64,000 nt of DNA from a virus (IMGVR_UViG_3300048995_000010:35351-99350); one strand, 5' to 3'; positions 78 through 63,611 are shown, counted from the stretch's first letter. Notes: a model not told the origin generated them from the sequence alone. A program made the numbers and translations.

Positions 78-842
78 TTAAATTCTACCGGTGAACATGG
101 AATAGTAGTAGTTGTCATTTGGGAGAAGCTGTATGAGTTGTTGTGTAGTGGCTTCTATCTTCTCTACAGATGGCATGGTGATACTCTCTGCAGCTCTTCC
201 GGCAAACCTTTCGAACATCTGATCCATCTGGGCTCCAGTATATCCATGGGTGGGATATCCTCTTCCATCCAGACGAGCTAGCAAGAACCAGGTGATAGCT
301 TCCTTATAGGGGCCATTATTGGGGATCATCAAAAATCCATCCCTGTCTACTGGTACTTTTCCAAAGAACACAGTTACTGAGCCCTCTGAAAAAGAAGTCA
401 AAATGTAAGGTCCTTCCTCTTTATACCATTCACCACAATGCCAATCCATCTGAGTTACCTTCTGAAACTCACTGGTATAAAGGAAATTCCCGGAAGGGGT
501 ATTCTCTTTGGTAGTAGAGGATACAAAAACAGCATCAAATACATCATGAGAAACAGAGGGGATCCAGGGTACTCTGGGATCTCTTACCGTATTGTTTTGT
601 CCCAACCGGTAACCACAGTACTCTATAGCGTAGACCTCTGCACATCCACAAGGTTTTTTGGCTTTATGGAATCGAGAGTCTATAGTTTCGAATGTATGTT
701 CCAGTGTAAGTGTCATCTGCATGAGCTCCATGGCTTCTGCAGTCCACTCATTGAGATCAGGGATTAAGCTGGTATCCTTTAATCCGTTACGACGTAATGC
801 ACGTCCTATAACCTGTCCCATACTAGTCCAAGAGGAGCTCAT
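78..842 (-). CDS. crAss-like tail ring/adaptor (tail tubular-like) protein
   Basis: ORF 78..965, likely start MSSSWTS at 842; lies after the IHF-like gene in the crAss structural block; DLNEWTAEAM and VDRDGFLMIP motifs resemble crAss ring proteins. Confidence 0.6.
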   Translation of the reverse strand: MSSSWTSMGQVIGRALRRNGLKDTSLIPDLNEWTAEAMELMQMTLTLEHTFETIDSRFHKAKKPCGCAEVYAIEYCGYRLGQNNTVRDPRVPWIPSVSHDVFDAVFVSSTTKENTPSGNFLYTSEFQKVTQMDWHCGEWYKEEGPYILTSFSEGSVTVFFGKVPVDRDGFLMIPNNGPYKEAITWFLLARLDGRGYPTHGYTGAQMDQMFERFAGRAAESITMPSVEKIEATTQQLIQLLPNDNYYYSMFTGRI

Positions 843-1410
843 GTGTGAATTGTTTATAACGTGTTTCCAATAGTGGATCTGCTCTAAGTGCAGCTTTGAA
901 TTCCTGTTTGAACCCCCCGCGACTATTAGTACCCTGAGAAGGAATGAACTTATATATCCTCTCATTGGGGAGTTGTCTGGCTTTCTCCCAGGCTATCCTG
1001 GAGTAGGTATCAGAGTTAAAGTATATGACCCTTTCTCTCTTCATCTTTCCGGTGACCGGGTCTTCTATAAGCGGTTGCTTCTTTGTCTCATGGAAGTTTA
1101 CCTGTTTGTTTTTGAAATTCCTGGCAACTGTTCTGGCTCTTAAGGATCCTAGTCTGTGTCCCAGCTTGAGTGTCTCCCCCTGTATCACATGTCTTCTGGC
1201 TAGTAGATAATACATCTTTACAATCTTTGCCCACCTGTCCAGACTGATCACCTCTATTACTGTTTTGTTTTTGCCTAACCTACAGATAGAACCCATCTTG
1301 TGCTTTTTCCTTCGATCATACTTTGCCCAGTAGCCTTCATACTGCAAGAGTTTTCTAGCATAACTTTCGTAGACATCTTTTGAATTGTGTGTAGCTGTTG
1401 ATTTATTCAT
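823..1410 (-). CDS. IHF/HU-like DNA-binding protein (crAss tail-module type)
   Basis: Basic 195-aa protein with GETLKLGHRLGSLRART, an HU/IHF arm-like motif; matches crAss gene order. Confidence 0.6.
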   Translation of the reverse strand: MNKSTATHNSKDVYESYARKLLQYEGYWAKYDRRKKHKMGSICRLGKNKTVIEVISLDRWAKIVKMYYLLARRHVIQGETLKLGHRLGSLRARTVARNFKNKQVNFHETKKQPLIEDPVTGKMKRERVIYFNSDTYSRIAWEKARQLPNERIYKFIPSQGTNSRGGFKQEFKAALRADPLLETRYKQFTHELLLD

Positions 1411-1418
1411 AGTAATTG

Positions 1419-2042
1419 TTATTCATCCTGATCCTGATGGGTTGGCAAAGTCTCTTTTGGTTGGCCAAGTTCTTGCCATAGAGATGTTTTTACCATCTGA
1501 GCAATATCTCCGGTGATTGGATATTCTGCATTCCACCAATCACATCCTGTCTGTGTGTTTTTGCACTGCCACTCCATTACCTTTTCAGGTTCATCAAAAA
1601 TTCCAGCACCAGTCACAGATCCTATCCTCTCACCAGGGATGATCAGTACGTTATTGTCCAGACGGTAGTTGATAAACAAGTGAGCTGTCATACCCTCCTT
1701 GATCCAAGGTTCAGTACCAATATCTGTATGACGATAAGGAGAGCTGGCATCGCCAGCCCCCAGGTATTCAAAAGGAGTATCTCCTATTCTGAGAAGTTTT
1801 GGGAGAGGTTGAGAGTAGGATCCTTGACACTGGAAACTCCCACAGGAGTAGTCACCGTAGCTTAGTGGGATATAGATCTTCTGCAGGAACTGACTCTTCT
1901 CGTTAGGATGCTTCTCCAGGGAGTTCCTGATGAGCCGGGAACGCCATTGATTGATCTGAGGTACCAAACCCTGTCGGTACTGCATGTCTAGTTCCTTACC
2001 GAATCGCTGGGCTATCTCTGTGGTGAATTCATTGAGTGTCAT
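1419..2042 (-). CDS. crAss-like virion ring protein
   Basis: MTLNEF start; GIFDEP and C-terminal EYPI..DI motifs typical of crAss ring proteins; synteny. Confidence 0.55.
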   Translation of the reverse strand: MTLNEFTTEIAQRFGKELDMQYRQGLVPQINQWRSRLIRNSLEKHPNEKSQFLQKIYIPLSYGDYSCGSFQCQGSYSQPLPKLLRIGDTPFEYLGAGDASSPYRHTDIGTEPWIKEGMTAHLFINYRLDNNVLIIPGERIGSVTGAGIFDEPEKVMEWQCKNTQTGCDWWNAEYPITGDIAQMVKTSLWQELGQPKETLPTHQDQDE

Positions 2043-2120: not shown

Positions 2121-3365
2121 TTAAAGCCCGAGAATAGTGTCAATTGATGAACTTGGGTTAGTACCATTTGAAGGTACTGCAACGCTGAAAAACGTTGTAC
2201 CTGGTGTCCAGGTATTATGTGGTGTACGAGAGGCTTCTACCGGTATTTTTGTCCATTGATACATGTTGTAGGTATTAGCTGCCAGTACAAGAGAAGCTGG
2301 TTTACCGAATTCCTCTGGAGTAGCATGATTCTCTGGATAGTTGGTAGTTACACCTGCAAATATATCGCCGGCCTGTTCCAGCATTTGAACTTGTTGATAG
2401 TAACCAGAACCAATCTTAGCCTTGATAGCATCTACTACTGTAGCAATCTCTCCTAATTTCTCACGAATTAGGACTTTGAAGAAAGTACCATAATTCTTTG
2501 CTTTGAGATTGAGTTTGTCATCACTGGTTGCTGTAGCATCTACAATCAGATCTCTATCCCGGTTAGCGAAGGAAGTAGTACTATTTACGAGTGCGGCCAG
2601 TGCTGCATTAACTGTAATGAGTGTATCACCCGCTTTTGCCACGTATTCATACATGCAAGTTGGAAAGGGTTGAGCTCCTGTAGTCAGGTCTATGATCTCC
2701 AGTTGATAAATATTACCAACTGCAGGAGCTGTACCTTCTGCACCACCTGCCAAGCTTGCTACTGAAGCAGCAGCCTGTACAGTTGACATGGTACCAGTAC
2801 CATCTACAGTTACCAGAGCCATGGCTGCAGCAGAAGCTCTGAGAGCAGCCAGTACCTGAGCACCGGTTGAGGTAGGAGCTGAAGCACCATCTGTAGCCAG
2901 GTTCACTGTGATTGCAAGACTTGATACACCAATCGACAGGGCTACGTTGTTACTGGCTGAGTCAACTACAGTTATAGTGATTGAGTTACCAGCTGTACCA
3001 CCTGTACGGGCAGTATATACGATGTTACCGACTGTCAGAGTAGCACGGGTACCATAGGCTATATCACTTTCAGCTTTCACAGGAGCTGAATAAGCTGTTT
3101 TTGTTTTAGTTACCTCACCCCCCAGAGAAGGAGTAGTCTTCATTATACGGCCATCGCGTTTAAGAGCCGCAAAAAATTTGGTAGTTGAGCCAATAGCTCC
3201 AGTGATAACAGCACCAGTAGCTGCATTGAAAAAACCAATCTCACCTTCAACTGCCTCTGTAAGGAAGCCTTCATAGGTGGTAGAGTCTGTGTAAGCTACT
3301 GCAGATCCTACCAGGACCTGTATTCTTTTTTGTCCAAGGGTTTTCCAGAAATCATTACCGAACAT
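2121..3365 (-). CDS. Major virion structural protein (auxiliary capsid-like) with Ala/Thr/Gly-rich beta insertion
   Basis: 414 aa, downstream of MCP, own terminator; TARTGGTAGNSITITVV...LAGG insertion. Confidence 0.55.
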   Translation of the reverse strand: MFGNDFWKTLGQKRIQVLVGSAVAYTDSTTYEGFLTEAVEGEIGFFNAATGAVITGAIGSTTKFFAALKRDGRIMKTTPSLGGEVTKTKTAYSAPVKAESDIAYGTRATLTVGNIVYTARTGGTAGNSITITVVDSASNNVALSIGVSSLAITVNLATDGASAPTSTGAQVLAALRASAAAMALVTVDGTGTMSTVQAAASVASLAGGAEGTAPAVGNIYQLEIIDLTTGAQPFPTCMYEYVAKAGDTLITVNAALAALVNSTTSFANRDRDLIVDATATSDDKLNLKAKNYGTFFKVLIREKLGEIATVVDAIKAKIGSGYYQQVQMLEQAGDIFAGVTTNYPENHATPEEFGKPASLVLAANTYNMYQWTKIPVEASRTPHNTWTPGTTFFSVAVPSNGTNPSSSIDTILGL

Positions 3366-3376: not shown

Positions 3377-4426
3377 TTATTGTGAGTTGATCGTGTTTTG
3401 TTGAGTTACATCTTTCCAGCTCTCATCCTTAATCAGGTTCAGTATCATCTCTACAGTTTTATTACACAGCTGTTGATGAATACTGGAAGATAAAGAGCAG
3501 TTTGTCCCCAAACTTAATGAGATAGTTGGCGGTTTCCTAATGTAGTTTATGAGTGTCTCATATACTATGAAGCTATTATCCACAGTTGTATTGATAATTC
3601 CAGCCTTCTGAGAGGTGATGGGAGAGATATAGGAAGTCTTGGAATAGGGTGTAGTACCTGTACTAAACTCCTTATCATGGGTGATCATGGTGTTTGGAGA
3701 AAGTATTGTACTACGACTGCTACTATGAACCTCTTGCGTAAGATCCTCTACAATTCCCGGATAGGACTGTCCATCCAGGGTGAGTTCTATTGGGACTTCC
3801 TGACTGGCATTTACAAAAACAAAGTGATATGGATACTCCAGGTTGTTGAACTTCTCCCAGTATACCTGCAAACCCTTTTTGGAAAGCTCCTCTATAATAA
3901 GATCTTTTATGTAGAAGTGAGCATCGCTTGAGGGAAATCCATCCCAGGCTTTCTGCCGGTTTGTAAGCAGGGTGTTCAGATTGAAAATACTGGAATTATT
4001 GTAGGCTATATCTACATTCCCATAGCATTCGATGGATAATGGAGATAGTGGAAACGGTACTCGTGTTATCTTAAGGATAGTGTGATTCACTGTTTTTGTA
4101 TCTCCTGTGCATAGTTGAGCTACTCTTGAAGCATCATCGAGTAAATACCAAAAATCACAGGGAAGGAAAGATACATATTGATCCGTGATCCAGCCAGCTT
4201 TCAGAGATTTTCTATTGACGATAAGAGAGGATATCCAATCTTGCTTTTTCTCTTTGATCTGATATCTCCCTGATCCTTGTATAGGAGTAACTGCTGATTC
4301 TACCATCAGCTGCTGCCCCCTGGTCAAAGCCCAATCTAACTGGTTTGGCTGAAATTTCCTGGATCGGTTGGCAGAGAGTTGCTGTACCTGGTCAATAACA
4401 TCGAGGTGCATTTCCTTTACAGTCAT
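3377..4426 (-). CDS. crAss-like virion ring/neck protein
   Basis: MTVKEMH start; C-terminal YIRKP...CSL...HQQLCNKTV pattern characteristic of crAss ring proteins. Confidence 0.65.
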   Translation of the reverse strand: MTVKEMHLDVIDQVQQLSANRSRKFQPNQLDWALTRGQQLMVESAVTPIQGSGRYQIKEKKQDWISSLIVNRKSLKAGWITDQYVSFLPCDFWYLLDDASRVAQLCTGDTKTVNHTILKITRVPFPLSPLSIECYGNVDIAYNNSSIFNLNTLLTNRQKAWDGFPSSDAHFYIKDLIIEELSKKGLQVYWEKFNNLEYPYHFVFVNASQEVPIELTLDGQSYPGIVEDLTQEVHSSSRSTILSPNTMITHDKEFSTGTTPYSKTSYISPITSQKAGIINTTVDNSFIVYETLINYIRKPPTISLSLGTNCSLSSSIHQQLCNKTVEMILNLIKDESWKDVTQQNTINSQ

Positions 4427-4430
4427 AGCG

Positions 4431-5369
4431 TTAAACTTTTGGTTTATCTCTAGTCGCTCTTGCTTTTTTCATAATATCCTGTGTTGTCCCTTTGAGGTAA
4501 TCCACAGTATCTGAATTCTCCTTGTTCTCCAGGTAGAGTAATGCCTCTAATTCAGAGGATCCCATTTTTGTTTTTGTCTCTCTCACGACAAAACTGGTAC
4601 CAACAGGTTCTACTACTCTGGCTTGGATCATAGCCTTTAACCAGTAACGAAGTTCAAATCTATCTTCCTGATATACTTTCAGGAAATCAGTAGCATTCTT
4701 TCTCACTATATCTCCCAGAGCAGTTTGCTTACGTTGTTCTTCGTTACGTCCCAGGAAGTCACGGGAATCTTTACCCAGCATAGTAAGGAGCATATTGACC
4801 TTACTTGGTTGTCCTTTGATTTTTAACCAGATTGCTTCAGCTTTATCCTGTACAACTATCCGATCATTATTGAGTTTATCTGCTTGTTCTGAATCGTAAA
4901 TGTAGAAGTACTTTAGTTGATTTCCATCGGCACCAATCTTATCAGAAGCTACCCATGGATGGCTTTTGGCATGTCTGTAGCGAATGAAGTCTTCTATCTT
5001 GATAGGGAGATTCTCAGTACTGAGTGGTTCTTCATTACTTTTCTCAAGTCCAATCTCCAGGTCTTTACCGGTACCATATGGGACTTTTGTCTTCAGGTTA
5101 TTGAAGAAGTCATAGACTTTTGAGCGGAACTCCTTTTCATCAGATTCTACATTAATGATATAAGGCATCAACAGCTTCTCTTCTGCTCTACTTAAACCAC
5201 TCCCTATCAGGCGGTTCGAAAAAGACTCAAAATAGGGACCTATCCCTATCTCTGTCATAGACATATAGCTACTGATCTGTTCATTTTCTGTGGGATTCTG
5301 TGCTCGTTGTATGAAGTTATCAGCACGAAATAATGTGATCTTACGACTGTTTGCATGAGTACTGGACAT
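4431..5369 (-). CDS. Conserved crAss protein directly downstream of MCP (gene-75-like)
   Basis: 312 aa; PIKIEDFIRYRHAKSHPWVA motif; synteny with MCP. Confidence 0.6.
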   Translation of the reverse strand: MSSTHANSRKITLFRADNFIQRAQNPTENEQISSYMSMTEIGIGPYFESFSNRLIGSGLSRAEEKLLMPYIINVESDEKEFRSKVYDFFNNLKTKVPYGTGKDLEIGLEKSNEEPLSTENLPIKIEDFIRYRHAKSHPWVASDKIGADGNQLKYFYIYDSEQADKLNNDRIVVQDKAEAIWLKIKGQPSKVNMLLTMLGKDSRDFLGRNEEQRKQTALGDIVRKNATDFLKVYQEDRFELRYWLKAMIQARVVEPVGTSFVVRETKTKMGSSELEALLYLENKENSDTVDYLKGTTQDIMKKARATRDKPKV

Positions 5370-7022: not shown

Positions 7023-8096
7023 TTATAATTCAGATACAGCTGGGTGAATGCCAGTCTTGTTATTTCTTTGTTGATTAGGATCTTCTGATGTTTTTGGTTT
7101 CTTCTTCTCAGTACCCATTTGAAACTTCAACCGTTTCACCACACCTTCATTCACTTTGTTTTTAATGATGTCTGAGAGATTACCATTTACATTCAAATAG
7201 TATAATGACTCTATCAAGTTTCCCATATTGGTGTCATTGACTTCCTGATTGACATACCAGCGGCCGGTTTCCCGGTCCAGTACCATCATACTACTAACGA
7301 ACTGCAAAAATTCAGCACGACGAGCATCTGGAATGGTAATCCCAAGATTCTTATTCTCCAGGATTCTTTCCCTGAGCGTTACACTCATTTTGTTGATGGT
7401 CTGTTCTTCCCTTTTTTGACGCTGTGCATCAAGTTCCAGCAGATCTTCCATCTGCTTCTTCTCCTTGAACTGTCGATCCTTATATTCAGTTTCAACCAGC
7501 CCTGGAAGTTTGTTCTTTTCGATTGCGTCCTTTATAATAAGGTCAGCCTGATCGGGAAGTATACCTTTGCTTGTCAGAGATCTTTTATAAAATGCTTGTT
7601 GTAAATCTACAGACTCTTTAAGGACTTCCCACTCTGGAAGAACCTCACTTTTGTTCTTAAAAAAGTCTTCATCTGAGCCCCCGTTAGCCCTATGCAACAT
7701 GTACGAGTACGCTCGTGGGTCACCTTCCTGAATATCTTTCTCAAATTTGTCTATTGCATGATCCTCTATCTGTTGCATAGCTGAGTGCAAACCAGCAGGA
7801 GTAGTAGGATCAATGCCTTCACCAAACTTGAATTGGAAGTCATCCCCACGAAGTCTGGACACTTCCTTGTAGATTTCAATGGGATCTGCTTCTGTTTCTT
7901 CTACTGAAGTTTCGTTTGTCTGTTCTTCAGTTCCTTCTCCCTCTTGTTTCTGCTCTTCTCCTTCAGTCTCTTCAGTTTTCTCTTCTATAGTTTCCTCAGT
8001 AGGAGTGGCTTGTTGTTGTTGTTGAACAGGGGGTTTATCCAGATCAGCTAGTGATGGCAGGATTCCTGGTTTTTGCTGTTGTTGATTTGTGTCCAT
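7023..8096 (-). CDS. Putative capsid scaffolding/assembly protein
   Basis: Acidic Q/E-rich N-terminus and coiled coil; located between portal and MCP. Confidence 0.65.
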   Translation of the reverse strand: MDTNQQQQKPGILPSLADLDKPPVQQQQQATPTEETIEEKTEETEGEEQKQEGEGTEEQTNETSVEETEADPIEIYKEVSRLRGDDFQFKFGEGIDPTTPAGLHSAMQQIEDHAIDKFEKDIQEGDPRAYSYMLHRANGGSDEDFFKNKSEVLPEWEVLKESVDLQQAFYKRSLTSKGILPDQADLIIKDAIEKNKLPGLVETEYKDRQFKEKKQMEDLLELDAQRQKREEQTINKMSVTLRERILENKNLGITIPDARRAEFLQFVSSMMVLDRETGRWYVNQEVNDTNMGNLIESLYYLNVNGNLSDIIKNKVNEGVVKRLKFQMGTEKKKPKTSEDPNQQRNNKTGIHPAVSEL

Positions 8097-8117: not shown

Positions 8118-10505
8118 TTATTTTTCGCCTACTACTTTATTTCGCAAGGCTACCTTGGCCTTCTTATCCTCTATACGTTCCTTACTCTTCATCTCCTTAT
8201 TTCTCTGTGTCAATTCACGTAGCTGCATTCTATCCTGTTGGGCCATTTCCATTGTCTTTAGTCTACTCTGTTGAGTTAGTTCCAGTGTTTTCATGTATTT
8301 ATCATAGATGGCTGAAGCATCTGGGACATCACTTACAGTTTCATCTCTTGAAAGTAGAGCAGCCGAATCCATATCCATCTGTCCTTCCAGTAGAGCAAGT
8401 CTTTCTTTCCACTGGTATTCATGTTCCTGTAACTGAATCTTCAGGTCGGTCTTCATAGCCTCGATAGCTGCTAGTCTTTTATCAGCATGTTCCTCAGCCT
8501 GTGCTTCAGACTCTTGTTGTTGTTGGGCCTGACGGGCCTGTATATCTTCTAATTTCAGAAGTTTCGAGCGAATCTCTGCCATGTTCGAGGCTTCGATGAT
8601 TTCTACTGTCATAGAAGGGCTGAGACCATTCTGTACCATAGGCTGTAGTAACTGCTTGAGGGTATTTACCTTGTCCTGTTCCTGAGGGGACCTGGACAGT
8701 AGAATACCCATGTCAGCATTACAATAAGCTACCGGGTCAATATCCAGGAGCTCATGGTCGTAAGTCGAGCCGTTGTATAAACCTTTCACTCCATCTACAT
8801 TAAGAAACTTAGACAGGTCAATGAGCCCCTGCATGTCAGTTTCCAGAAAGTCTTCAAATCCCAAGAACACAAGGTCAGTAACCAGGTTAGACTGGAAGAT
8901 GGCTTGTGATGTGGCCCCAGGCTGTGAACTGGCTGAGGTTTCTCCCCTTCTCTGTGGAGTAAAACCGGTAGTAAGATCCCACTGCTGTCTGCAGTAGTCT
9001 AATATCTCAATGAGTTCTTTGATATCTTTGAAAGTGGACATATCCAGTACTGTATACTGGTTCCAGGATTTATCTACGCCAGCCTGGTTTCTATTTAGCA
9101 GACCATATCCTTGGGCCTCAGCGTAGTAGAAGAACTTCTCTTCATCCCAGCCCTTAGAGTTGGGAATAGCATTCTTATCAATCAGGAGTATCTTTCCTTT
9201 ATTTTTGGCGATGGTCTTCTCTAGTTGGTAATTGACGATCATGAACAAGGTCTGGAATGGTACACCTTGTTTTAGCAGAGAGAATATATGGTTGGATGTA
9301 GGAGAGAACTTAGCACCATTGTAAGACAGCTTACAGGAAGAGAAGTTGTTCATGGCATTTCTCTGTACCGGTACAGCTCTTGGATTTACATAGATGTCAT
9401 TGCCTATCCTCCAGACTTCATATGACTCATTACCCCAAAATGTCTCTGACTTTTCTCCTTCCTGTACTACATAATCCTCATCTACCTGTTCTTCTGATAG
9501 ATCTCCATTCTCATCAACAGACATAATTGTCTTCATCTTCTTTCTGGCCTTGAACTGGCAATGATAGACAGGAATCTTCCCTTGAGTGACATCACCATAC
9601 ACAGTATTAAGGTGAGCTCCGAAGGTATCTGCAGAATACATGAGAGGACGTTTGTCCATATCCAGGAGATCCTGTGTCTTAATATCCTCATAGAACTTAT
9701 CTACTATGTCTGACATTGTATACCACTGACGACGGACTATCCACTCTCCATCTTCAATAAATTCTATATGAGGACTCTTATCATAGCGGATCTCTCTTGG
9801 GTCTACTCTCTCATAAACCAGGTCTCCATGTTCAATATTTTTGTAGGAGAATACACCCCCAGCAACCAGCCAGTCCAAAAACATGATCCTACGCTTACGA
9901 TGTATCCGGTATTCATCCAATGCCCGATTAAGCCATTTCTGCCCATCAACTGCCAAGGAATCTTTGTAAGAAAGTTTGTGCTTCTCCTGCACTTCCCATG
10001 GCATCTCAATCTCTTCTGGTTGAGGGATTTCATTCATAGGAATCCCTTTTTCCAGCGCACTCTGCTGGATCATTTGAATGAAATGCTCTGTCATATTCTG
10101 AGCAAGTTTCTCCTGCAGTTGTGAAGTATACCGGATGTATCCGTCTTCTCCTCTATTGACTACCTGATAGATAAAGGGCCGGCGATAGTATTCTCCTACC
10201 AACTGATCAATATTGGTCCTGAGAATGTTGGTAGCTCTGATCTTTGCCGGGAATCGTTTGTGCTGTGGATTCTTTGCAGCCAGGGGATTGGTTATGTGAC
10301 TAAACCAGCTGGATGGAAATTCATTGTTGTAGATATCATAGAGTTGATTCAATTCTCCATCCGGTTCATTTGTATACCGGAATAGACCAGACTGTGAAAT
10401 ATAGTAATCAGCAGTTCTTTTGAACCACTCATAATTCTTGGCAATCTTCTCACTCCAGGATACTTGTTGTAAGGGACGATTGAACGTGTTTACGTATGAA
10501 CTCAT
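8118..10505 (-). CDS. Portal protein
   Basis: 795 aa directly after TerL; long C-terminal coiled coil; GFTPQRRG motif typical of crAss portals. Confidence 0.9.
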   Translation of the reverse strand: MSSYVNTFNRPLQQVSWSEKIAKNYEWFKRTADYYISQSGLFRYTNEPDGELNQLYDIYNNEFPSSWFSHITNPLAAKNPQHKRFPAKIRATNILRTNIDQLVGEYYRRPFIYQVVNRGEDGYIRYTSQLQEKLAQNMTEHFIQMIQQSALEKGIPMNEIPQPEEIEMPWEVQEKHKLSYKDSLAVDGQKWLNRALDEYRIHRKRRIMFLDWLVAGGVFSYKNIEHGDLVYERVDPREIRYDKSPHIEFIEDGEWIVRRQWYTMSDIVDKFYEDIKTQDLLDMDKRPLMYSADTFGAHLNTVYGDVTQGKIPVYHCQFKARKKMKTIMSVDENGDLSEEQVDEDYVVQEGEKSETFWGNESYEVWRIGNDIYVNPRAVPVQRNAMNNFSSCKLSYNGAKFSPTSNHIFSLLKQGVPFQTLFMIVNYQLEKTIAKNKGKILLIDKNAIPNSKGWDEEKFFYYAEAQGYGLLNRNQAGVDKSWNQYTVLDMSTFKDIKELIEILDYCRQQWDLTTGFTPQRRGETSASSQPGATSQAIFQSNLVTDLVFLGFEDFLETDMQGLIDLSKFLNVDGVKGLYNGSTYDHELLDIDPVAYCNADMGILLSRSPQEQDKVNTLKQLLQPMVQNGLSPSMTVEIIEASNMAEIRSKLLKLEDIQARQAQQQQESEAQAEEHADKRLAAIEAMKTDLKIQLQEHEYQWKERLALLEGQMDMDSAALLSRDETVSDVPDASAIYDKYMKTLELTQQSRLKTMEMAQQDRMQLRELTQRNKEMKSKERIEDKKAKVALRNKVVGEK

Positions 10506-34023: not shown

Positions 34024-34066
34024 TTTTTGAATCCCCTTATTTAATAACACACATACAAAAACAATC

Positions 34067-47964: not shown

Positions 47965-47982
47965 CAACCAAAAACAAATCCA

Positions 47983-52964: not shown

Positions 52965-52977
52965 TCAATTCAAAAAC

Positions 52978-54216
52978 ATGACAAAAACACCTGAGGAGGT
53001 ATCACAGATTAAAAGTGCTATCCAGGATATGGCCTACACCGCTTGGGTGAACTCTGGTAAGAAATCTACGATTGTAGCCGCTACCGGTGTAGGCAAGAGT
53101 CGGATCGCAGTTAGACGCTGCGAAGAAATCTGGAGTGATACCAGTGCTCTTGATCTACCCATAGGTAGAGAAGATGATATACGATCTATACTTCTGGTTA
53201 CACGTACTGAAAAACTCCGAGATATCAACTGGCCAGATGAGTTTAAAAAGTGGCATGCTGAAGAGTCCCTGGTCTTGGTCAAACGTATCTGCTATTCCTC
53301 TCTTAATAAGGAGAAGGGTAACAAGTATAGACTAGTCATTCTGGATGAAGTTCACCGGTTAACCCAGAGAAATGCTGAAGGCTTCCAGGAAGATAACCTG
53401 TTATCTGTGTTCTTCGCAGAGAATATGGCTGATGAAGTCATGGGACTTACAGCTACAGAACCGGACCCTAAGAGGGATCTAATCAAGTCTCAGATTTTTG
53501 AACAGATCTCACCAGTATGCTTTCGGTATACTCTGGATCAAGGGATCAAGGACGGTATTGTACCAAATTCCAGAATCAAGATCATTCAGATCCCTCTGGA
53601 GAGAGTAGTAAAGAATATTCCTGCTGGTACAAAGAAAGCTCCTTTTCTTGCTACTGAACAGAGTGCTTATGAGTACATGAACAAGCAGGTAGGGAAAGCT
53701 CAGGCTGCAGCTTCCAAGGATCCAAAGAAGGCTGGCTGGGCTCAGTCACTGTATGGTGCTAGGAAGAGATTCATTTCAAATCTTCCTTCCAAAAACAGAG
53801 TAGCTAAGAAAATCATCGAGAAAGTTCTCCCTGGTAACCGGGTACTGATCTTCTGTGGGAGTGTTGACCAATCCAGAGAGTTGTGTGGAGAAAATGTACA
53901 CAACTATAAGGACCAGAAATCTGGTATGCTGGAGAAGTTCAAGGCTGAGGAGATAGACTATCTGGGTGCCATCGATGGTGTCAATGAAGGAGAGAATATT
54001 CCCAATCTGGATCACCTCATTATTGTTCAGATGAATAGTAATGAACGTGATGCTATCCAGCGGATGGGAAGGCTCCGCTACAAGGAGAATCATATTCCTA
54101 CCGTCTACATTCTTGTGTCTCAGGGCACAAAAGATGAGGACTGGGTACGCAAAGCTATGATCAATATTGACAGGGAGAGAATCACATATGAATCCTACCT
54201 GGAATACCTGAAATAA
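52978..54216 (+). CDS. SF2 DExH helicase
   Basis: ATGVGKS, LDEVH, GLTAT and QRMGR. Confidence 0.88.
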   Translation: MTKTPEEVSQIKSAIQDMAYTAWVNSGKKSTIVAATGVGKSRIAVRRCEEIWSDTSALDLPIGREDDIRSILLVTRTEKLRDINWPDEFKKWHAEESLVLVKRICYSSLNKEKGNKYRLVILDEVHRLTQRNAEGFQEDNLLSVFFAENMADEVMGLTATEPDPKRDLIKSQIFEQISPVCFRYTLDQGIKDGIVPNSRIKIIQIPLERVVKNIPAGTKKAPFLATEQSAYEYMNKQVGKAQAAASKDPKKAGWAQSLYGARKRFISNLPSKNRVAKKIIEKVLPGNRVLIFCGSVDQSRELCGENVHNYKDQKSGMLEKFKAEEIDYLGAIDGVNEGENIPNLDHLIIVQMNSNERDAIQRMGRLRYKENHIPTVYILVSQGTKDEDWVRKAMINIDRERITYESYLEYLK

Positions 54217-54273: not shown

Positions 54274-54294
54274 AGAATCCCAAAAACAAGTCAG

Positions 54295-54795: not shown

Positions 54796-55921
54796 TAATG
54801 ACTGGGATAAGAAGCCTGATTCATTCACAAAAGCGGTAGATAGAGGAAGACAAGGGTTGTCCATGGGATTTGATAACGGGGGCACTCGTATCAATGAGTA
54901 TTTGTATGGAACTCACCGTGGACGTTACTATCTTATAGGTGCCGATTCAGGGGTAGGTAAGACTACTCTCGCTGACTTTATGTTTGTCATAAAACTGTGG
55001 CTGGATTGTAAACGAAAAGGGGTATCTATCAGGATAGTGTACTTATCCTTTGAGCTATCCAAAGCAGCGAAGATCGCTCGCTGGGTATCCCTTTTCATCA
55101 AGTTTTTGTACAACCTGGAGATTCCCAGTGATTATATCATGGGGAGAATTCCAGGTCTCCTGCTCTCAGATGATCACATGGAGATGGTGAAAGTAGCCAA
55201 GGGATATGTTGATCTATTTTTGAAAGATTGTGAGGTCATTGAGGCAGGTGTACACCCTACCTGGATCCTGAATCATATGGTAGAACTCTATGAACAGCTT
55301 GGGACTATCAACCGGGCGCCTCATCCAAAAGATCCAAAGAAGAAGGGTTTCATTAGTGGGTATACTCCCAAGGATCCTAACCAGGTGACTATGCTTGTAT
55401 GTGATCACTTGGCACTGGCACATGGAGAAAAGGATGCTACTTCACTTAAAGCCATCATTGACAAAATCAGTAACTATGCTGTCTTCCTTCGGAACACTTT
55501 TGATACCATCATTGTGTTTTTGCAGCAATTCTCAACTGACCTGGTTAGTACTCACCGGGCAAGTAAGAAAGGTGACAGTTACATTGTACCTCAACGGATT
55601 GATTTCGGTGACAGTAAGTATACCTACCGAGATGCTGATGTTGTATTTGGTTTGGTGTCTCCAATGGGTTTTGATGAAAAGAAGTACAAAGGCTATGATA
55701 TCGAGCGTTTACTGAACTACTTCCTTGCTCTGCACTTAATGAAGAATCGACACGGCCCCGCCAGTCGTATGATGCCATTATTCATGAATCCTGCTGCCGG
55801 CACTTTCCATGAGCTCCCAAAAGATCCCCTCAACGAACTTGAGATGGAGCCATGGTATGCAGAAGTTGACCGGTTGGAGCAAGTGGGTTCATTATTTATT
55901 CCGAAACAATTAAACAGTTGA
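54758..55921 (+). CDS. dnaB: DnaB-like replicative helicase
   Basis: GADSGVGKTT, YLSFEL, CDHL, RDADVV and KNRHG. Confidence 0.85.
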   Translation: MTPNHLQGIVLADNDWDKKPDSFTKAVDRGRQGLSMGFDNGGTRINEYLYGTHRGRYYLIGADSGVGKTTLADFMFVIKLWLDCKRKGVSIRIVYLSFELSKAAKIARWVSLFIKFLYNLEIPSDYIMGRIPGLLLSDDHMEMVKVAKGYVDLFLKDCEVIEAGVHPTWILNHMVELYEQLGTINRAPHPKDPKKKGFISGYTPKDPNQVTMLVCDHLALAHGEKDATSLKAIIDKISNYAVFLRNTFDTIIVFLQQFSTDLVSTHRASKKGDSYIVPQRIDFGDSKYTYRDADVVFGLVSPMGFDEKKYKGYDIERLLNYFLALHLMKNRHGPASRMMPLFMNPAAGTFHELPKDPLNELEMEPWYAEVDRLEQVGSLFIPKQLNS

Positions 55922-56732: not shown

Positions 56733-56764
56733 TAATTCAATCATTCATAAACAAAAACAGTACA

Positions 56765-58370: not shown

Positions 58371-59639
58371 ATGGAAGATAACATGTTCTTAATGGGCGAG
58401 AATGAACTATTAGAGGAGGTCGATGAGTACCTCCTCTATTGTTTTTATCTTGGGTTCAACCCAGAATTGAGGGTACGATACAAGTCACCGGCCAGAGATC
58501 CAAGCAATGCAGATGAAAACGCTTCCTGGTCACTCTTCACAAATACGAGTCGCCTCAACAGGGAGTATGCTTGGAAAGACAGTGGGACCGGTGAGTTTGG
58601 AGACATATTCAAGCTGGTCATGATCGTGCTAAACTGCAAAAACAAGGCCACAGCACTAGAGAGGATTAAACAGGACTTCATTTTTGGTAACGGAGTAGAG
58701 ATTGCCAGACAAGGTATATCTGCCCCCAAAGATAAGGATCCTGCCAGAATTCGCCTGAAATCCAGAGCTTTCGATCACCAGGACAAGCAATGGTGGTTGG
58801 AGAGAACAGGTGCAGATGAAGAAATTTTGAATTTTTTCAATGTGAAACGTGTTAAGTATTACTGGATGTATGACAAGCAGAATACCCCCAGCTTTCCCGG
58901 AGATGGAGTATATGCCTATCGGATATATTCTCATTACCAACTTTACTTCCCTCATAGGGATAGAGACTTTAGATTTCGTAATGACTTTTCAGATGACCAC
59001 CTATTAGGATTCGCTCAACTCAAATTTCAGAGTGACACACTTATCATCACCAAGAGCATGAAAGATATTATCACTCTGTATGGTTTGGGATTTGAGGCAG
59101 TTTCTCCACGAGGTGAGCATACACCAATTCCACAGAAGTTTCTGGAGTTCCTGTCAAGTAAGTACAAGAGAATCTTTACTCTATTTGATAATGACGGTAA
59201 GCACCGGGCCTGGGACTATAAGTATCCCTCAATTGAACTGCCCACACCAACCAAAGTTGCAAAAGATCCCAGTGACCATTATCATGTTTTTGGTCCGCAA
59301 GAGACCCAAAATGTAATCAGTCACCTCATTCAAACTCATCCCATGAATGATTTTTCCCATCTCGATTTGAAGAAACCCCGATCTCGTCTGGAGATTGAAG
59401 AACTACTGGACCAGATCTATCTGGGTAAGGTAATCAAGATCCAATATGTAGGTCGTAAGGTAACACAGGTCTGTGGAAAGATCCATAGAATTGCCATGGA
59501 CTTTGATAGTAATGGTGAAGCAATCTGTATCGCTATGATCGAAGACAAGCGGTATGAATTTGCTCTTGCCTATTTCATTCAAAAAGCTCTAATACAACAG
59601 CAAGATGGCTATACACGAAGTACAGGTGACCCAGATTGA
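58371..59639 (+). CDS. DNA primase (TOPRIM) with C-terminal extension
   Basis: SP.RD..S, KDSGTG..GDIF, IITKSMKD, FDND and KDPSD. Confidence 0.85.
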   Translation: MEDNMFLMGENELLEEVDEYLLYCFYLGFNPELRVRYKSPARDPSNADENASWSLFTNTSRLNREYAWKDSGTGEFGDIFKLVMIVLNCKNKATALERIKQDFIFGNGVEIARQGISAPKDKDPARIRLKSRAFDHQDKQWWLERTGADEEILNFFNVKRVKYYWMYDKQNTPSFPGDGVYAYRIYSHYQLYFPHRDRDFRFRNDFSDDHLLGFAQLKFQSDTLIITKSMKDIITLYGLGFEAVSPRGEHTPIPQKFLEFLSSKYKRIFTLFDNDGKHRAWDYKYPSIELPTPTKVAKDPSDHYHVFGPQETQNVISHLIQTHPMNDFSHLDLKKPRSRLEIEELLDQIYLGKVIKIQYVGRKVTQVCGKIHRIAMDFDSNGEAICIAMIEDKRYEFALAYFIQKALIQQQDGYTRSTGDPD

Positions 59640-62394
59640 AGGAGGGTTTACCAAGAAAATTGATAAGGATTCTGAACGGATGATCTTTGATAACCTTCAG
59701 AAAACTCAGTACTCACACCCGGAGAAATCAACAGTCCGGGAACTTGCTTCTAATGGTATCGATGCTATCAGAGAGCGCGATATTGCCAAAAGTATTCTCA
59801 CAGGAAAATCTAAGATAGAAGATCACTTTGTCCAAAGAGAAGGTAGTGAATACTCAAATAGCCAGTTTGATCCAGTCTACTATGATCTCAAATGGCTCAG
59901 TGATGAACCTAGAGTCTTCATCCGGTATATTGAAGGAAGTGCCCTGGAAAAAGACAAGGTTATAATCTCTGACTATGGGGTAGGCCTATATGGCCGGCGC
60001 CTCTCAGGGTACTTTAACCTGGGATTTTCAACTAAGAGACTCTCCCGGTTCGGTCTGGGAAAGTATGGTATAGGGGCTAAGGCAGCTCTCTCTACTGGTG
60101 TTCCTTTCTATACTGTGAGGAACTACTATAATGGTACAGAGAGCCATTTCAATGTATATAACAACCAGGTGGTACCAATTATTCCAAAGTTCAATCTGGA
60201 AACCGGACAGGAGAATCCCTGTTTTGAACTAGAGGGAATTACCTGTCACTACAAAAACACAACCAGGCTCAATGGCCTAGAGGTAGAGCTGGAGGTGAAG
60301 AAGCACCATAAACAGAAGTACATCGATGCTGTAAAGTCACAGCTTCTTTACTTTGACAATGTGGTATTCCAAGTAGAAGCTCACAATGGGACCATGGAGA
60401 CTATACAGGTGAGAGCCAGTATTCTTTATGAAGATGACATCATGATTCTCTCAGATAATCAGATGTATTCTAAACCCCACATTCTGATCAACCGGGTGAA
60501 TTACGGTAATGTGGACTTCCTGGAGCTGGAACTGGAAGACAAGACTGGTAATATCTCTATCAAGTTCAAACCTGAAGAGGTAGACGTTAATCCTTCCAGA
60601 GAACATGTGATGTGGGGGGATCTTACCAGAGAGTCTATCAAAAAGAGATTCCAGGAGGTACAGAAGTCTGCTGAAATTATGCTCCAGAAGGAGCTGCAGG
60701 AAACTGACTTTATGAAGTGGCTGAGAGCCTGTATTGCAGTCAAAAACAAACTGGGTACTGAACAGACTAATACATTAGTTGGACGTCTATCCAAGTTAGT
60801 AGATCTTTCCAACTACTCTCCAAAGTACAAACCAGATCCTCAGTTCATATTGAATGGAATGTTGTTTGCCGGAGTAGCTGTAAGAAAGGTCACTGGGAAA
60901 ATAGAGCGCCGAGGAAGTATGCGTATAATGAGAGTAGACAGGTCCGTAGCTGGATTAACTGATCTGGTGAGTGGTGATATCCCTGTTTTTGTACAGCTGG
61001 GTAATACCAATGTACTGCGGGATCGTTACCTGCTGGAAGATGTTCACCAAGCTGGCTTTGTTACTATCTGGCTCAATGAGACAGAAGTAGAGCAACCTGT
61101 AATCCCGGAAGGTGTTACTGATGAGCAACGACAGGAAATAGAGAAGTCGTATATCCGTAAAAAGGATATGCTTCACAGGCAGGCTCTGGAAGCTGCTTTT
61201 GAACTGAAACTCGTACTTCGAGGGGATTTTATTCCAAGAAAGATTGAAGAGTCTTTTGTGGAAATGATTCTGGAAAGGTGGAGGAAACTCAATTACTATA
61301 TCCTAACCTCAGAAGGTATCAGAATGTACGATGATATTGAAGTGCCGGAAGTCTTCAAGGAAAGAAATAACGGTAAAGAGGAAGATGGTACTATTAGCCG
61401 AGAAGAGGAAGTACAGTCAGAGGAAGCTAAGGTAAGTGCTGAAGCTCGTCGTAAACTTGAGGGTAAGACTATTCTGTTTACACCCCGAATATCTTCCGAT
61501 AAAGATCAGCTTTATGATTGGCATAAGCTGGAAATTCCTGTTGGTAATATTGACAACTGGAATAATTCTGAAGTGTATTACTCCTCGGATGATGACTCTT
61601 CTTTGCTACAACTGGCAGCTTTTATAACGCGTCCTGCAGAAAATATAGCATCGCGTGTACGATATAAAAATGAGGAACTTGTTGCCAGCCCAGAGGGTAA
61701 AGAGATGTACGATTATGACGCTAATGACCGTACTGTAACTATTTCCAAACTTACTGCCTTTGAAGGTCCTATAGAGGTGAAGCTTATTAAGGTAGCCAGA
61801 GACCGGGTGAAGTACTACCGGGATTTCAAACATATTCGTAACTTTTTTGCAGAAGTCACCAAAAACAAAGTGATTACAATGAGCTCAAAGTTGATCAAAT
61901 GGAATACGGCAAGGTATATCTATCAGCATATTGAGAAGCTTGCATTTCTCTCTAATTTCTCTCAGTTCCATGCTGAAAACCATCAAACTTATCACCAGCT
62001 CTACAAGTATATGGTTGACCATTACAGATCTGTTGGTGATTACAAAAACAAGTTCAAGGAGTTGGAGGGAGAAGAATATGATGATATGATCAAGCACATG
62101 GATAAAGTCTCTGAGCTCCAAATCTTTGTTAGTGAAAACAAAGGAGATGCAGAAGCTATTACCAAGGTAGTACAGGAACTTTTTGGTACTGGAACAGAGA
62201 ATCTTATCTCAGATGGTTGTGCACTGGATATGAATATCAGGAACATGCTTCATCAACTCCTGGAGTATGCCGAACCTCTAAGTACAATGTTGAATGAGAT
62301 GCAGGTTCTTACAGCACATCCAACAGGTAATATCGATGAAGATCTGGAAACTGAAATTCGTAACTTCATTGCCTTCAAACAAGCTGGTCACTAA
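59605..62394 (+). CDS. rIIA: rIIA-like GHKL ATPase protein
   Basis: VRELASNGIDA, DYGVG, STKR, GKYGIG and PSRE. Confidence 0.75.
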   Translation: MAIHEVQVTQIEGGFTKKIDKDSERMIFDNLQKTQYSHPEKSTVRELASNGIDAIRERDIAKSILTGKSKIEDHFVQREGSEYSNSQFDPVYYDLKWLSDEPRVFIRYIEGSALEKDKVIISDYGVGLYGRRLSGYFNLGFSTKRLSRFGLGKYGIGAKAALSTGVPFYTVRNYYNGTESHFNVYNNQVVPIIPKFNLETGQENPCFELEGITCHYKNTTRLNGLEVELEVKKHHKQKYIDAVKSQLLYFDNVVFQVEAHNGTMETIQVRASILYEDDIMILSDNQMYSKPHILINRVNYGNVDFLELELEDKTGNISIKFKPEEVDVNPSREHVMWGDLTRESIKKRFQEVQKSAEIMLQKELQETDFMKWLRACIAVKNKLGTEQTNTLVGRLSKLVDLSNYSPKYKPDPQFILNGMLFAGVAVRKVTGKIERRGSMRIMRVDRSVAGLTDLVSGDIPVFVQLGNTNVLRDRYLLEDVHQAGFVTIWLNETEVEQPVIPEGVTDEQRQEIEKSYIRKKDMLHRQALEAAFELKLVLRGDFIPRKIEESFVEMILERWRKLNYYILTSEGIRMYDDIEVPEVFKERNNGKEEDGTISREEEVQSEEAKVSAEARRKLEGKTILFTPRISSDKDQLYDWHKLEIPVGNIDNWNNSEVYYSSDDDSSLLQLAAFITRPAENIASRVRYKNEELVASPEGKEMYDYDANDRTVTISKLTAFEGPIEVKLIKVARDRVKYYRDFKHIRNFFAEVTKNKVITMSSKLIKWNTARYIYQHIEKLAFLSNFSQFHAENHQTYHQLYKYMVDHYRSVGDYKNKFKELEGEEYDDMIKHMDKVSELQIFVSENKGDAEAITKVVQELFGTGTENLISDGCALDMNIRNMLHQLLEYAEPLSTMLNEMQVLTAHPTGNIDEDLETEIRNFIAFKQAGH

Positions 62395-62420
62395 ATTCTT
62401 TAAACACATAAAACAACAGT

Positions 62421-63611
62421 ATGATCCAAATTAGTCGTGTTGGTGACATCATCACCGGTACTGCAAATGGTAAATCCTTCAGTGTAACATACACACAGCA
62501 GAAGTGGGATGCCATGCAGGATATCAAAAGAAGAGCTGGAGAACTCTCTACAATGGCTGAACTCCGTACTCTACTGGAACAGGAATTTGAACCCCTGATG
62601 CATGAGAGTTATAAGGATGTGATTCAATCTCAATCTCCTTATTTACATGTAAACCCTCTGAGCAATCGCTTCTACTTGAAGTATGGCCAGGAAGTATCCA
62701 AAGAACCTCTTCCACAAGTTTTTGTAGATCGTATTCTGGAGTCTACCGAGAAGAACATTGATCCCCGCCCTGTAGTTAAGTGTTGGGCCAGGTTCCTTAG
62801 GAATCCGAACTACTCTACCAGGAAAGCTGAATTGTTCGCGTACTATATCAACCAGAAGTATACTGACGCCAAGCGCCGTGACCAGTATATCAAGGATGGT
62901 ATGAGTTATGAAAGAGCAAATGAACTGGCTACTGGTTACCAGACCCCTATCACTGATGAAGGTCTTATCTGTACTTATAAGGTCTCAGAAGAGATCACTA
63001 AGAAGTATATTGCCGATCCCAATAACGAGGATGAAGTTAAACAGGTAGGCCGCTATCAGATGGAAGTCGATGAGTTTTCCGGTCTGAAAACTTATAAAAC
63101 TCCTGAAGATATAGAGGATCGTATCTTCCTGCCTGCAGTACAAGGTAGAGATGGTGACAAGTTTTCTCAGTCCGAGCCTGATGGTACTTTTGTAGAAGAA
63201 GGGCATCATATCCGTGTAGGTAAAGTTCATGCTCTTAAAGAGTGGAGCATGGTTGATTGTAATGATGACCATTCTTGTGTAAAGGGTCTACACTGTGGTA
63301 ATCTGGATTACATCCGTAGTTACCAGAGTAAAGGCACTGTTACTCACTATGTTTTTGTAGATCCAATGCATATCGGAGCTGTTGTACAAGATAACACTGG
63401 TGCACTGCGTGTGAAACAATATATGGTGTATGCTTCATTTGCTGGTGTTACCAGAAGTCTATATCACAGTGCCACCTATGGGAAATTGACCGATAAGGAA
63501 TATGAAGACCTGGTTCGTGATGTTGTTTCTAAAACTCGTGATGAACAGATCAGCAAACTCAACGAAGAATACAATGCTAAGGCAAGTCTCGTAGGAGATG
63601 GCGGAATATAA
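62421..63611 (+). CDS. rIIB: rIIB-like protein
   Basis: PITDEG..YKV, SCVKGLHCG and VDPMHI; follows rIIA. Confidence 0.75.
   Translation: MIQISRVGDIITGTANGKSFSVTYTQQKWDAMQDIKRRAGELSTMAELRTLLEQEFEPLMHESYKDVIQSQSPYLHVNPLSNRFYLKYGQEVSKEPLPQVFVDRILESTEKNIDPRPVVKCWARFLRNPNYSTRKAELFAYYINQKYTDAKRRDQYIKDGMSYERANELATGYQTPITDEGLICTYKVSEEITKKYIADPNNEDEVKQVGRYQMEVDEFSGLKTYKTPEDIEDRIFLPAVQGRDGDKFSQSEPDGTFVEEGHHIRVGKVHALKEWSMVDCNDDHSCVKGLHCGNLDYIRSYQSKGTVTHYVFVDPMHIGAVVQDNTGALRVKQYMVYASFAGVTRSLYHSATYGKLTDKEYEDLVRDVVSKTRDEQISKLNEEYNAKASLVGDGGI

Follow-up and report, generated by a model that had tools for sequence, protein, structure and literature searches.

Abundance, dialects, and candidate readers of a genome-wide octamer in a soil crAss-like phage

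Why should a single asymmetric octamer, CAAAAACA, recur about once per kilobase throughout a phage genome, in either orientation and inside genes that have little else in common? The question is raised by a 64,000-nucleotide stretch of viral DNA (IMGVR_UViG_3300048995_000010:35351-99350; here called the window), which comprises bases 35351-99350 of a single-contig crAss-like phage genome of 99,350 bp rated complete by CheckV. A first reading of this DNA, made from the sequence alone (the sequence-only reading), had proposed that the octamer is a selected site on double-stranded DNA for a protein that handles the genome. The enrichment proved to be real and statistically overwhelming, and comparison with related phages indicates that the word is maintained by selection. 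The explanation we prefer, which we hold tentatively and at a little under an even chance, is that CAAAAACA is a word on duplex DNA, read by a sequence-specific protein that co-evolves with it, is probably encoded by the phage, and acts through the density of its sites across the whole genome.

Abundance and placement of the word

An exact search of the window found 76 copies between positions 524 and 63357, 47 as CAAAAACA and 29 as the reverse complement TGTTTTTG; the manual scan behind the sequence-only reading, with about 74 (45 and 29), was two short. Dinucleotide-preserving shuffles of the window contained 3.5 ± 1.7 copies with a maximum of 8, and the expectation from composition was exceeded about 20 times, in agreement with the roughly 20-fold enrichment first proposed. 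CAAAAACA was by far the most frequent 8-mer of the window, the runner-up, which overlaps it, having 40 copies. The whole genome contained 103 copies (58 on the plus strand and 45 on the minus strand), or 1.04 per kb, and all 24 single-letter variants had 22 copies or fewer. The sibling 8-mers CAAAAATA and GAAAAACA, named by the sequence-only reading as words that might be equally frequent, occurred only 9 and 4 times in the genome, and CGAAAACA and CAAAAAAA did not occur at all. Low-order Markov models predicted 5 to 14 copies; models of order 5 to 6 came near the observed count, but these already include the word's own 6- and 7-mers.

To separate the word from coding constraints, synonymous codons were shuffled within each gene such that every protein and the codon usage of each gene were preserved. 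Over the whole genome the count fell from 103 to 31 ± 3.6 copies (a difference of about 20 standard deviations), and 15 of these 31 were the untouched intergenic copies; the coding copies dropped from 88 to about 15. A shuffle of codon order left 21 copies. The earlier statement that codon or amino acid bias does not explain the octamer therefore holds, and the enrichment does not disappear under a codon-preserving shuffle.

Of the 103 copies, 88 (85%) were in coding sequences (CDS), 52 in the sense and 36 in the antisense direction, and 15 were intergenic; with the intergenic copies included, 63 were sense and 40 antisense, compared with about 2.5 antisense copies expected from composition. 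The genes on the minus strand, from approximately 3.7 kb to 59.5 kb of the genome, encode the structural and giant virion proteins, and those on the plus strand, which occupy the rest, comprise small early open reading frames (ORFs) and replication genes. The synonymous shuffle left 11.8 of the 52 sense coding copies and 3.6 of the 36 antisense coding copies, indicating that enrichment is no weaker in the antisense than in the sense orientation, and the enrichment in both orientations was similar in the two gene blocks. The raw preference for sense arises because the coding strand is A-rich (the AT skew is +0.05 to +0.10 in the plus block and below zero along the whole minus block). Sense coding copies lay in all three frames and antisense copies nearly all in two (24, 11, and 1). 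Since both orientations are enriched relative to the shuffle, the signal belongs to the duplex, or to both strands alike, and not to the mRNA. A test for Chi-type polarity failed, as the word showed no polarity beyond what coding explains. The sequence-only reading had noted copies in different frames and in mixed orientation in both transcription blocks, and had taken the latter to argue against an RNA signal and against simple polar signals of the Chi or KOPS type; the shuffles support it on each count.

Coding copies had a density of 1.2 per kb among the plus-block genes and 0.8 per kb among those of the minus block. Spacing was near random (coefficient of variation, 0.90), with a largest gap of 4.4 kb, as random placement predicts, and even spacing was rejected on these grounds; the gaps between copies on one strand reached about 8 kb. 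The scarcity reported for certain loci was confirmed: the major capsid gene has no copies, the portal and large terminase genes have one each, the spike or fibre-like gene has two in 4 kb, and the noncoding RNA (ncRNA) loci fall in word-free intervals (43309-46020 and 29109-29854). The most constrained genes were poorer in the word (0.6 versus 1.0 per kb), and across proteins the correlation between conservation and word density was not significant (rho, −0.07). Thirteen of the 63 sense copies ended 4 to 12 nt upstream of a start codon, where about 2 would be expected; the other 50 were away from starts, 47 of them at least 57 nt before the next start codon. In this phage, leaders tend to be A/C-rich and most have no Shine-Dalgarno sequence, and the word was not kept at the orthologous leaders of relatives. 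We read the start-proximal copies as opportunistic placement in permissive sequence with no separate function.

The core of the word is CAAAAAC; in the wider form, T-N-C-A-A-A-A-A-C, the base after the final C is A, T, or C rather than G. The T at −2 and the avoidance of G at +8 recurred in every word-bearing lineage, and in this genome CA was present at +12 in 27 of the 103 copies compared with 7.4 expected. These flank preferences suggest a footprint somewhat longer than 8 bp.

The 76 copies in the window, with sense and antisense given relative to the gene, are as follows:

524..531, +, CDS antisense
1107..1114, −, CDS sense
1266..1273, −, intergenic sense
1556..1563, −, CDS sense
3096..3103, −, CDS sense
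3814..3821, +, CDS antisense
4091..4098, −, CDS sense
4569..4576, −, CDS sense
7089..7096, −, CDS sense
9876..9883, +, CDS antisense (portal)
11740..11747, +, CDS antisense (large terminase)
14720..14727, +, CDS antisense
15147..15154, −, CDS sense
19587..19594, +, CDS antisense (fibre-like gene)
20256..20263, +, CDS antisense (fibre-like gene)
20637..20644, −, CDS sense; inverted pair with 20667
20667..20674, +, CDS antisense
21504..21511, +, intergenic antisense
21817..21824, −, sense, end 4-12 nt upstream of start codon
22277..22284, +, antisense; in densest cluster, 21504-23412
22406..22413, +, intergenic antisense
22543..22550, +, CDS antisense
22966..22973, −, CDS sense
23405..23412, +, CDS antisense
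26957..26964, +, leader, just upstream of start codon
27652..27659, +, CDS sense
27800..27807, +, leader of next gene
28082..28089, +, intergenic sense
28652..28659, −, CDS antisense
29102..29109, −, CDS antisense
29854..29861, +, CDS sense
30506..30513, +, CDS sense
31413..31420, +, CDS sense
31579..31586, +, CDS sense
32066..32073, −, CDS antisense
32187..32194, +, CDS sense
34056..34063, +, leader
34462..34469, +, CDS sense
35212..35219, +, CDS sense
35592..35599, −, CDS antisense
35823..35830, +, CDS sense
36059..36066, −, intergenic antisense
36631..36638, +, CDS sense
37447..37454, +, CDS sense
38522..38529, +, leader of thymidylate-synthase-like gene
39522..39529, −, CDS antisense
39874..39881, +, leader of ORF 39893-40552
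40374..40381, −, CDS antisense
41394..41401, +, intergenic sense
42316..42323, +, CDS sense
42732..42739, −, CDS antisense
43218..43225, +, CDS sense
43302..43309, −, CDS antisense
46020..46027, +, leader
46754..46761, −, CDS antisense
46830..46837, +, leader of UDG-family gene
47105..47112, −, CDS antisense
47876..47883, −, intergenic antisense
47969..47976, +, leader of DNA polymerase gene
49515..49522, −, CDS antisense (DNA polymerase)
52057..52064, −, CDS antisense
52169..52176, +, CDS sense
52971..52978, +, CDS sense; direct pair with 52982, 11 bp apart
52982..52989, +, CDS sense
53790..53797, +, CDS sense
54281..54288, +, leader
55515..55522, −, CDS antisense
56752..56759, +, leader
58637..58644, +, CDS sense (primase-like gene)
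59285..59292, −, CDS antisense (primase-like gene)
60252..60259, +, CDS sense
60741..60748, +, CDS sense
60984..60991, −, CDS antisense
61860..61867, +, CDS sense
62043..62050, +, CDS sense
63350..63357, −, CDS antisense

The densest stretch, with 7 copies in 1.9 kb (21504-23412; 11 copies in 20256-23412), adjoins the divergent switch between the two gene blocks and could be an origin or control region, the excess over a Poisson expectation being only marginal. Outside the window, at genome positions 1032-1047 (locus L132), two copies lie head to head as a perfect 16-bp palindrome, TGTTTTTGCAAAAACA, within a 5′-3′ exonuclease gene. Among the leaders, four neighboring genes (starts at 39663, 39893, 40913, and 43201; window 39663-43413) have a clear GGAGG 6 to 9 nt upstream of the start, which is unusual for a Bacteroidota phage.

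Conservation and dialects among relatives

Relatives were found by a search with the capsid protein, which yielded a graded series, and stretches of about 20 kb around the capsid and DNA polymerase genes were compared. They are independent assemblies from other samples and other assemblers, and an assembly artefact is therefore excluded. IMG/VR contained two distant relatives only. The observed/expected counts of CAAAAAC were as follows:

L003, capsid identity 96%, 28/5.7
L006 and L134, capsid identity 86%, 79/12
L131, capsid identity 84%, 36/6.5
L129, capsid identity 77%, 35/6.0
L130, L136, L001, and L002, capsid identity 58-66%, 9/10.7
L137, polymerase identity 55%, 3/2.8
L138, polymerase identity 48%, 1/5.2

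At capsid identities of 77% or more, CAAAAAC was thus present at about 5 to 7 times expectation in the relatives with the strict word, and at 66% or less there was no enrichment. This distribution indicates that the word was gained at one node of this phage tree.

The genome represented by L007 and L135 (capsid identity, 79%; G+C, 48-50%) exhibited a different pattern. Here the observed/expected counts were 31/10.8 for CAAAAAC, 28/4.9 for CGAAAAC, and 15/3.0 for CTAAAAC, while CCAAAAC was at expectation (9/9.3). Changes at other positions gave at most about a 2-fold excess, compared with the five- to sixfold excess of CGAAAAC and CTAAAAC. This dialect is relaxed at position 2 only, to C[A/G/T]AAAAC. 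At orthologous positions L007 has CGAAAACA or CGAAAACC where L006 has CAAAAACA, and in the genome of the window CGAAAAC is nearly absent (1/5.4). The last position also varies: CAAAAAT was in excess in this genome and in L003, L131, and L006, while L129 and L007 showed no such enrichment. Change limited to defined positions would be expected from an altered specificity of the reader rather than from neutral decay or a general requirement for DNA shape. The lineage-specific dialects support the part of the sequence-only reading that invoked a sequence-specific reader.

Conservation of individual sites was assessed in a five-way alignment of the capsid region. Between this genome and L006 (66% nucleotide identity), 6 of 15 sites were identical, compared with 6.7% of all 8-mers and 8.7% of A/T-rich 8-mers; between this genome and L003, 9 of 15 were identical, compared with 21 to 25% of other 8-mers. 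Word sites were kept 2 to 6 times more often than other 8-mers. Many sites were nevertheless gained in single lineages, some at the cost of amino acid changes (for example, CGGGAACA versus CAAAAACA), and one was relocated by 6 bp between lineages. Conservation combined with turnover is the signature of selection on density and not on particular positions. With the enrichment surviving a codon- and protein-preserving shuffle and the sites conserved above background, the earlier claim of a selected site is borne out.

Candidate readers and competing explanations

In the explanation that we prefer, selection would have distributed the recognition word over the whole genome, at about one copy per kb, in a single clade of soil crAss-like phages. 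The word would be read by a sequence-specific protein, probably as a monomer because the word is asymmetric, and this protein would most likely be encoded by the phage lineage and co-evolve with the word. The benefit would come from the density of sites across the genome rather than from individual copies: the word would recruit the reader to phage DNA or enrich it there, which would distinguish that DNA from the DNA of the host, where the word is 3 to 10 times sparser. DNA architecture, replication or recombination, and protection are candidate roles. Copies would accumulate wherever the sequence tolerates them, so that A/C-rich translation leaders are over-represented and the capsid, portal, and terminase genes are poor in copies. 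A broader proposal, possible but in our view doubtful, is that crAss-like phages, and probably phages of other kinds, are able to evolve a private self tag that spans the genome. The tag would be a short asymmetric word with lineage dialects, and a co-evolving reader protein would distinguish phage DNA from that of the host and steer replication, recombination, protection, or packaging-related functions to it.

The window encodes a crAss-type major capsid protein (relatives of the capsid gene contain Pfam Crass_capsid), a portal, and a large terminase, together with a family-A DNA polymerase, a Dda-like helicase, and a RIIA-like protein. Approximately 77 ORFs were scanned against Pfam and PHROG, and most, including those of the early/replication block, had no known family; no repressor-like family was present among the scanned ORFs, most of the small ones having no family at all. 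The proteins considered as readers were the following:

50229-50747, +, DnaA-domain-IV-like protein (Pfam PF08299, E value of 7e-5, below the cut-off)
13389..13640, −, HU/IHF-like protein (PF00216, E value of 1.6e-4, about the Pfam cut-off); candidate reader, neither supported nor excluded
58371..59639, +, DnaG-type primase-like protein of 422 residues with a weak Toprim match; candidate reader if the word serves priming
39893..40552, +, ORF whose N-terminal 70 residues were found only in word-bearing genomes among the stretches compared; weak candidate
43201..43413, +, ORF of 70 residues with the same word-bearing-only pattern; weak candidate

The sequence-only reading had named four proteins as candidates, none of which gained support. 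Its DnaA-domain-IV protein lies directly after the polymerase gene in all relatives and aligns to domain IV of Aquifex DnaA, including the DHTTV-type helix. It is a poor candidate, being present in the word-free L136 and L137 as well, and its recognition helix differs between this phage (NHTSVIHG) and L134 (DHSLVSKS), although both share the identical word. In place of two HU/IHF-like proteins only one weak HU-like protein was found, with an ortholog in the word-free L130, and a six-frame Pfam search of the whole genome detected no RepL-like protein, contrary to the RepL-like winged-helix protein that had been suggested. In the polymerase stretches, the N terminus of ORF 39893-40552 and ORF 43201-43413 were the only sequences present in all three word-bearing and none of three word-free genomes. 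An AlphaFold2 model of ORF 39893-40552, built from a three-sequence alignment, was unusable (pLDDT of 37), and sequence searches of the PDB with this ORF and with ORF 46034 returned only chance-level matches. A 156-residue ORF (40913-41383) was 77% identical in the L006 genome and absent from the syntenic stretch of the dialect genome; an Atlas look-up gave no usable match for it. The C-terminal domain of the primase-like protein seemed clade specific but was found as a separate ORF in the word-free L136 (30% identity).

Several points weigh against our preferred explanation. No reader was identified; each of the named candidates either did not follow the distribution of the word or could not be judged. 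Kinship alone may account for the two clade-restricted ORFs, since close kin share more genes anyway. The near-random spacing gives no pointer to a structural lattice, and enrichment alone cannot separate selection for binding from sequence-biased repair or conversion. A host-encoded reader with few sites in the genome of the host would also be possible.

An alternative that we judge unlikely, though somewhat less so than the others, is that the word directs priming: the DnaG-type primase or replisome of the phage would read it on the single-stranded template and start lagging-strand primers, with both orientations used since forks would cross loci both ways in recombination-dependent or concatemer replication. 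At roughly one copy per kb, the word recurs at the scale typical of Okazaki fragments. The phage has its own Toprim primase-like protein, which keeps the DxD motif and adjoins a DnaB-like helicase. Between identical-word genomes this is the best-conserved replication protein (72% identity), and its identity falls more than that of its neighbors in the dialect genome (54%; neighbors, 53-69%). However, known DnaG- and T7-type primases read 3 to 5 nucleotides and not 7 to 8. The short recognition of T7-type primases, 3 to 5 nucleotides, is documented (PMC2910064). In addition, orthologs of the primase are kept in word-free relatives (40% identity in L136 and 36% in L138), the zinc-binding region that sets specificity in T7 is nearly unchanged in the dialect genome, single-strand gaps reach about 8 kb, and the spacing is no more even than random. 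The N-terminal region of this protein resembles a CHC2 zinc finger in which every cysteine ligand has been lost, a state conserved in relatives.

A host factor, for example RecBCD/AddAB acting at a Chi-type site or a nucleoid protein, might instead read the word, in which case the phage would have been loaded with sites to tame or recruit it and the dialect would mark a change of host; we consider this rather improbable. The G+C content of the dialect lineage (48-50%, compared with 42-44%) fits a different host, yet L129 at 47% still has the strict word. Chi words are asymmetric 5- to 8-mers, but Chi acts in one direction. In Bacteroidota genomes (5 and then 401, for a total of 406) the word was present at no more than about 0.33 per kb, compared with 1.04 per kb in the phage, and at 1.0 to 2.1 times its reversed control. 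This comparison revealed a modest 1.5- to 2-fold excess throughout the phylum, but none of the 406 genomes approached the phage density or showed saturation of the uptake sequence type; the true host may lie outside the sample and may have a modest enrichment of the Chi type. The phage also encodes a domain like the T7 gp5.9 RecBCD inhibitor (E value of 1.7e-13), making a Chi strategy less necessary.

The word might also be a functionless by-product of sequence-biased repair or conversion, whether resembling very-short-patch repair or HIP1, with a lineage-specific enzyme turning near-matches into the word. We hold this to be improbable, although hyper-abundant words tied to repair or methylation exist and an enzyme with altered specificity would likewise yield a dialect. 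The lower density in the most constrained genes is what would be seen for a drive opposed by selection at the protein level, but the correlation with protein conservation was not significant, as noted above. A six-frame search for DNA methyltransferases of the N6/N4 and D12 classes (PF01555 and PF02086), the only families searched, found none, and no repair system is known with an asymmetric context of 7 to 8 bp.

Still less probable is that the word is the target of a covalent transaction, namely, that an enzyme of the phage modifies a base in it or that one strand is nicked there site-specifically, as in T5. An asymmetric, strictly defined word resembles the targets of many modification and nicking enzymes, and the lack of a known family for most ORFs of the early/replication block leaves room for such an enzyme. 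However, the same search gave no recognizable methyltransferase, modification targets are normally not enriched, and T5-type nicks are on one strand only, while the word is on both. The thymidylate-synthase-like, UDG, and dNMP kinase genes, considered as correlates of base modification, are also present in the word-free L137 or L138.

It is very unlikely that DNA shape alone explains the word, that is, that the A5 tract is favored because it intrinsically bends DNA or narrows the minor groove, as an aid to packaging or to a nonspecific architectural protein, with no base-specific reader. The whole excess of A5 runs does come from C-A5-C (136) and C-A5-T (76), which make up 212 of 330, with runs of A6 and longer being rare, and C-A(5-6)-T is well known as the bent element of kinetoplast DNA. 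The flanks, however, are sharply specified (14 for G-A5-C and 21 for T-A5-C, with the other flanks overall at 9 to 28), the dialect alters one defined position only, and A/T content is at background (0.53-0.60) beyond about 5 nt from the word, so that a test for phased bent A tracts failed. Least tenable, and largely refuted by the antisense enrichment described above, is a signal in mRNA such as an A-rich translation enhancer for Bacteroidota ribosomes with little Shine-Dalgarno pairing, for which the start-proximal copies in A/C-rich leaders speak but to which the many sense copies far from starts and the failure of leader copies to persist at the same leaders in relatives are opposed.

Other features were noted in these genomes. 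A 165-residue protein (43783-44280, +) combines a RyR domain (E value of 9e-11) with the C-terminal gp5.9-like domain mentioned above and is conserved in L134, with partial matches in L130 and L002. The palindrome GGCGCC is a second word in excess, with 18 sites in the genome compared with about 4 expected, often as AGGCGCCT and in all three frames; sites in the window include 11059, 12561, 14690, 19314, 30021, 38805, 52923, 54686, 55315, 57832, and 59996. Relatives are enriched in GGCGCC or TGGCGCCA as well, among them L130, which is free of CAAAAACA, and the palindromes GGGCCC, GCGCGC, CCGCGG, and CGCGCG are entirely absent from the genome. The pattern suggests restriction-site avoidance and a separate conserved palindromic word. 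In the word-free L001, an IMG/VR relative with 59% capsid identity, the palindrome AGTACT is in about 2-fold excess (78 versus 39.6, both strands counted). With 1047 residues, the large terminase of L131 is enlarged and bears a LAGLIDADG signal, probably that of an intein (L131:3331-6474), and the polymerase on the same contig is recorded as a 574-residue piece. Free-standing GIY-YIG genes are present in L003 (8113-8859) and L134 (8197-8916) but not in this genome.

Comparison with known systems

A literature search found CAAAAACA in no relevant paper and no account of an orientation-independent word at about 1 per kb in a crAss-like phage. The only public run containing the phage sequence is a soil metagenome, and no RNA run is listed among such runs. 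In the phi14:2 study, the early transcripts that the virion RNA polymerase produces had no common motif upstream, and the middle and late promoters resemble sigma-70 promoters with −35 and −10 elements, unlike CAAAAACA. Comparable lineage-specific octamers have been noted in other phages, among them a Bacteroidota phage with CCCGGATG; these serve as leads only and not as evidence.

The closest working analogy would be the stoperator array of cluster A mycobacteriophages, although CAAAAACA does not appear to be a member of that class. Stoperators, the sites of L5 gp71-type repressors, are 13-mers in 20-odd copies, mostly in short intergenic gaps, with an orientation that follows transcription and is required (PMC9283540). 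They are asymmetric and dispersed and are read by a monomeric phage protein (PMC9283540, PMC6550527), and we read one of these accounts as indicating that site and protein diverge together between lineages (PMC6550527). CAAAAACA is likewise an asymmetric, dispersed phage word of many copies, and its dialects resemble this co-divergence. It differs in its length of 7 to 8 bp, its 103 copies, its placement in genes (85%), and its use of both orientations (40 of 103 antisense), and no lysogeny genes were seen among the scanned ORFs. In cluster K mycobacteriophages, start-associated sequences of 13 bp occur only at gene starts (PMC3203893). The 13 copies just upstream of start codons recall them, but these are a minority, are not conserved at orthologous leaders, and look opportunistic.

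Tests for Chi sites (polarity), HIP1 (palindromy and a methyltransferase), phased A tracts, and DnaA boxes all failed. Chi sites are asymmetric 5- to 8-mers that are over-represented and tolerated in genes, but they are polar, co-oriented with replication, and enriched in the host chromosome. CAAAAACA shares the asymmetry, over-representation, and tolerance within genes; it differs in having no polarity beyond coding and no phage-like enrichment in the 406 Bacteroidota genomes, and its carrier has a gp5.9-like inhibitor domain. HIP1 of cyanobacteria is a hyper-abundant palindromic 8-mer of cellular genomes that is linked to a methyltransferase and is lineage specific, with alternative words elsewhere. 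Like HIP1, CAAAAACA is lineage specific and written into genes through synonymous and nonsynonymous choices; unlike it, CAAAAACA is asymmetric and in a phage in which no N6/N4 or D12 methyltransferase was found. TF1 of SPO1 is a phage-encoded HU-family protein that prefers phage DNA through hydroxymethyluracil. The present phage also encodes an HU-like protein, but no link between this protein and the word was seen, and it is present in a word-free relative as well. A relationship of the DnaA-box type failed, as neither the presence of the protein nor its recognition helix co-varies with the word.

In density, orientation independence, coding cost, and dialects, CAAAAACA comes closest to the bacterial uptake sequences, the DUS of Neisseriaceae and the USS of Pasteurellaceae. 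These are short, asymmetric, density-dependent self tags present at about 1 per kb in either orientation, in genes at a coding cost and with dialects, in cellular genomes where they are read by the competence machinery during DNA uptake. CAAAAACA resembles them with its 1.04 copies per kb, its 58 plus and 45 minus copies, its 88 of 103 copies in CDS, and its dialects; it differs in that its carrier is a lytic-type phage and that the 406 genomes of the presumed host phylum lack the enrichment. We know of no viral self-tag system of this kind, and if the self-tag reading were true, the word would be a viral counterpart of the uptake sequences. If the reader is phage encoded, it would offer a new handle on how the replication or genome organization of crAss-like phages tells phage from host DNA. 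The evolutionary frame, with one gain node, strict and relaxed dialects, and word-free sister clades, makes the search for the reader a tractable comparison, for which CAAAAACA, CGAAAACA, and word-free DNA are ready-made specificity controls; the word is also useful in practice for recognizing metagenomic contigs that belong to the clade. For DUS/USS, Chi, KOPS, and HIP1 alike, the hyper-abundant word led to a piece of DNA-handling machinery.

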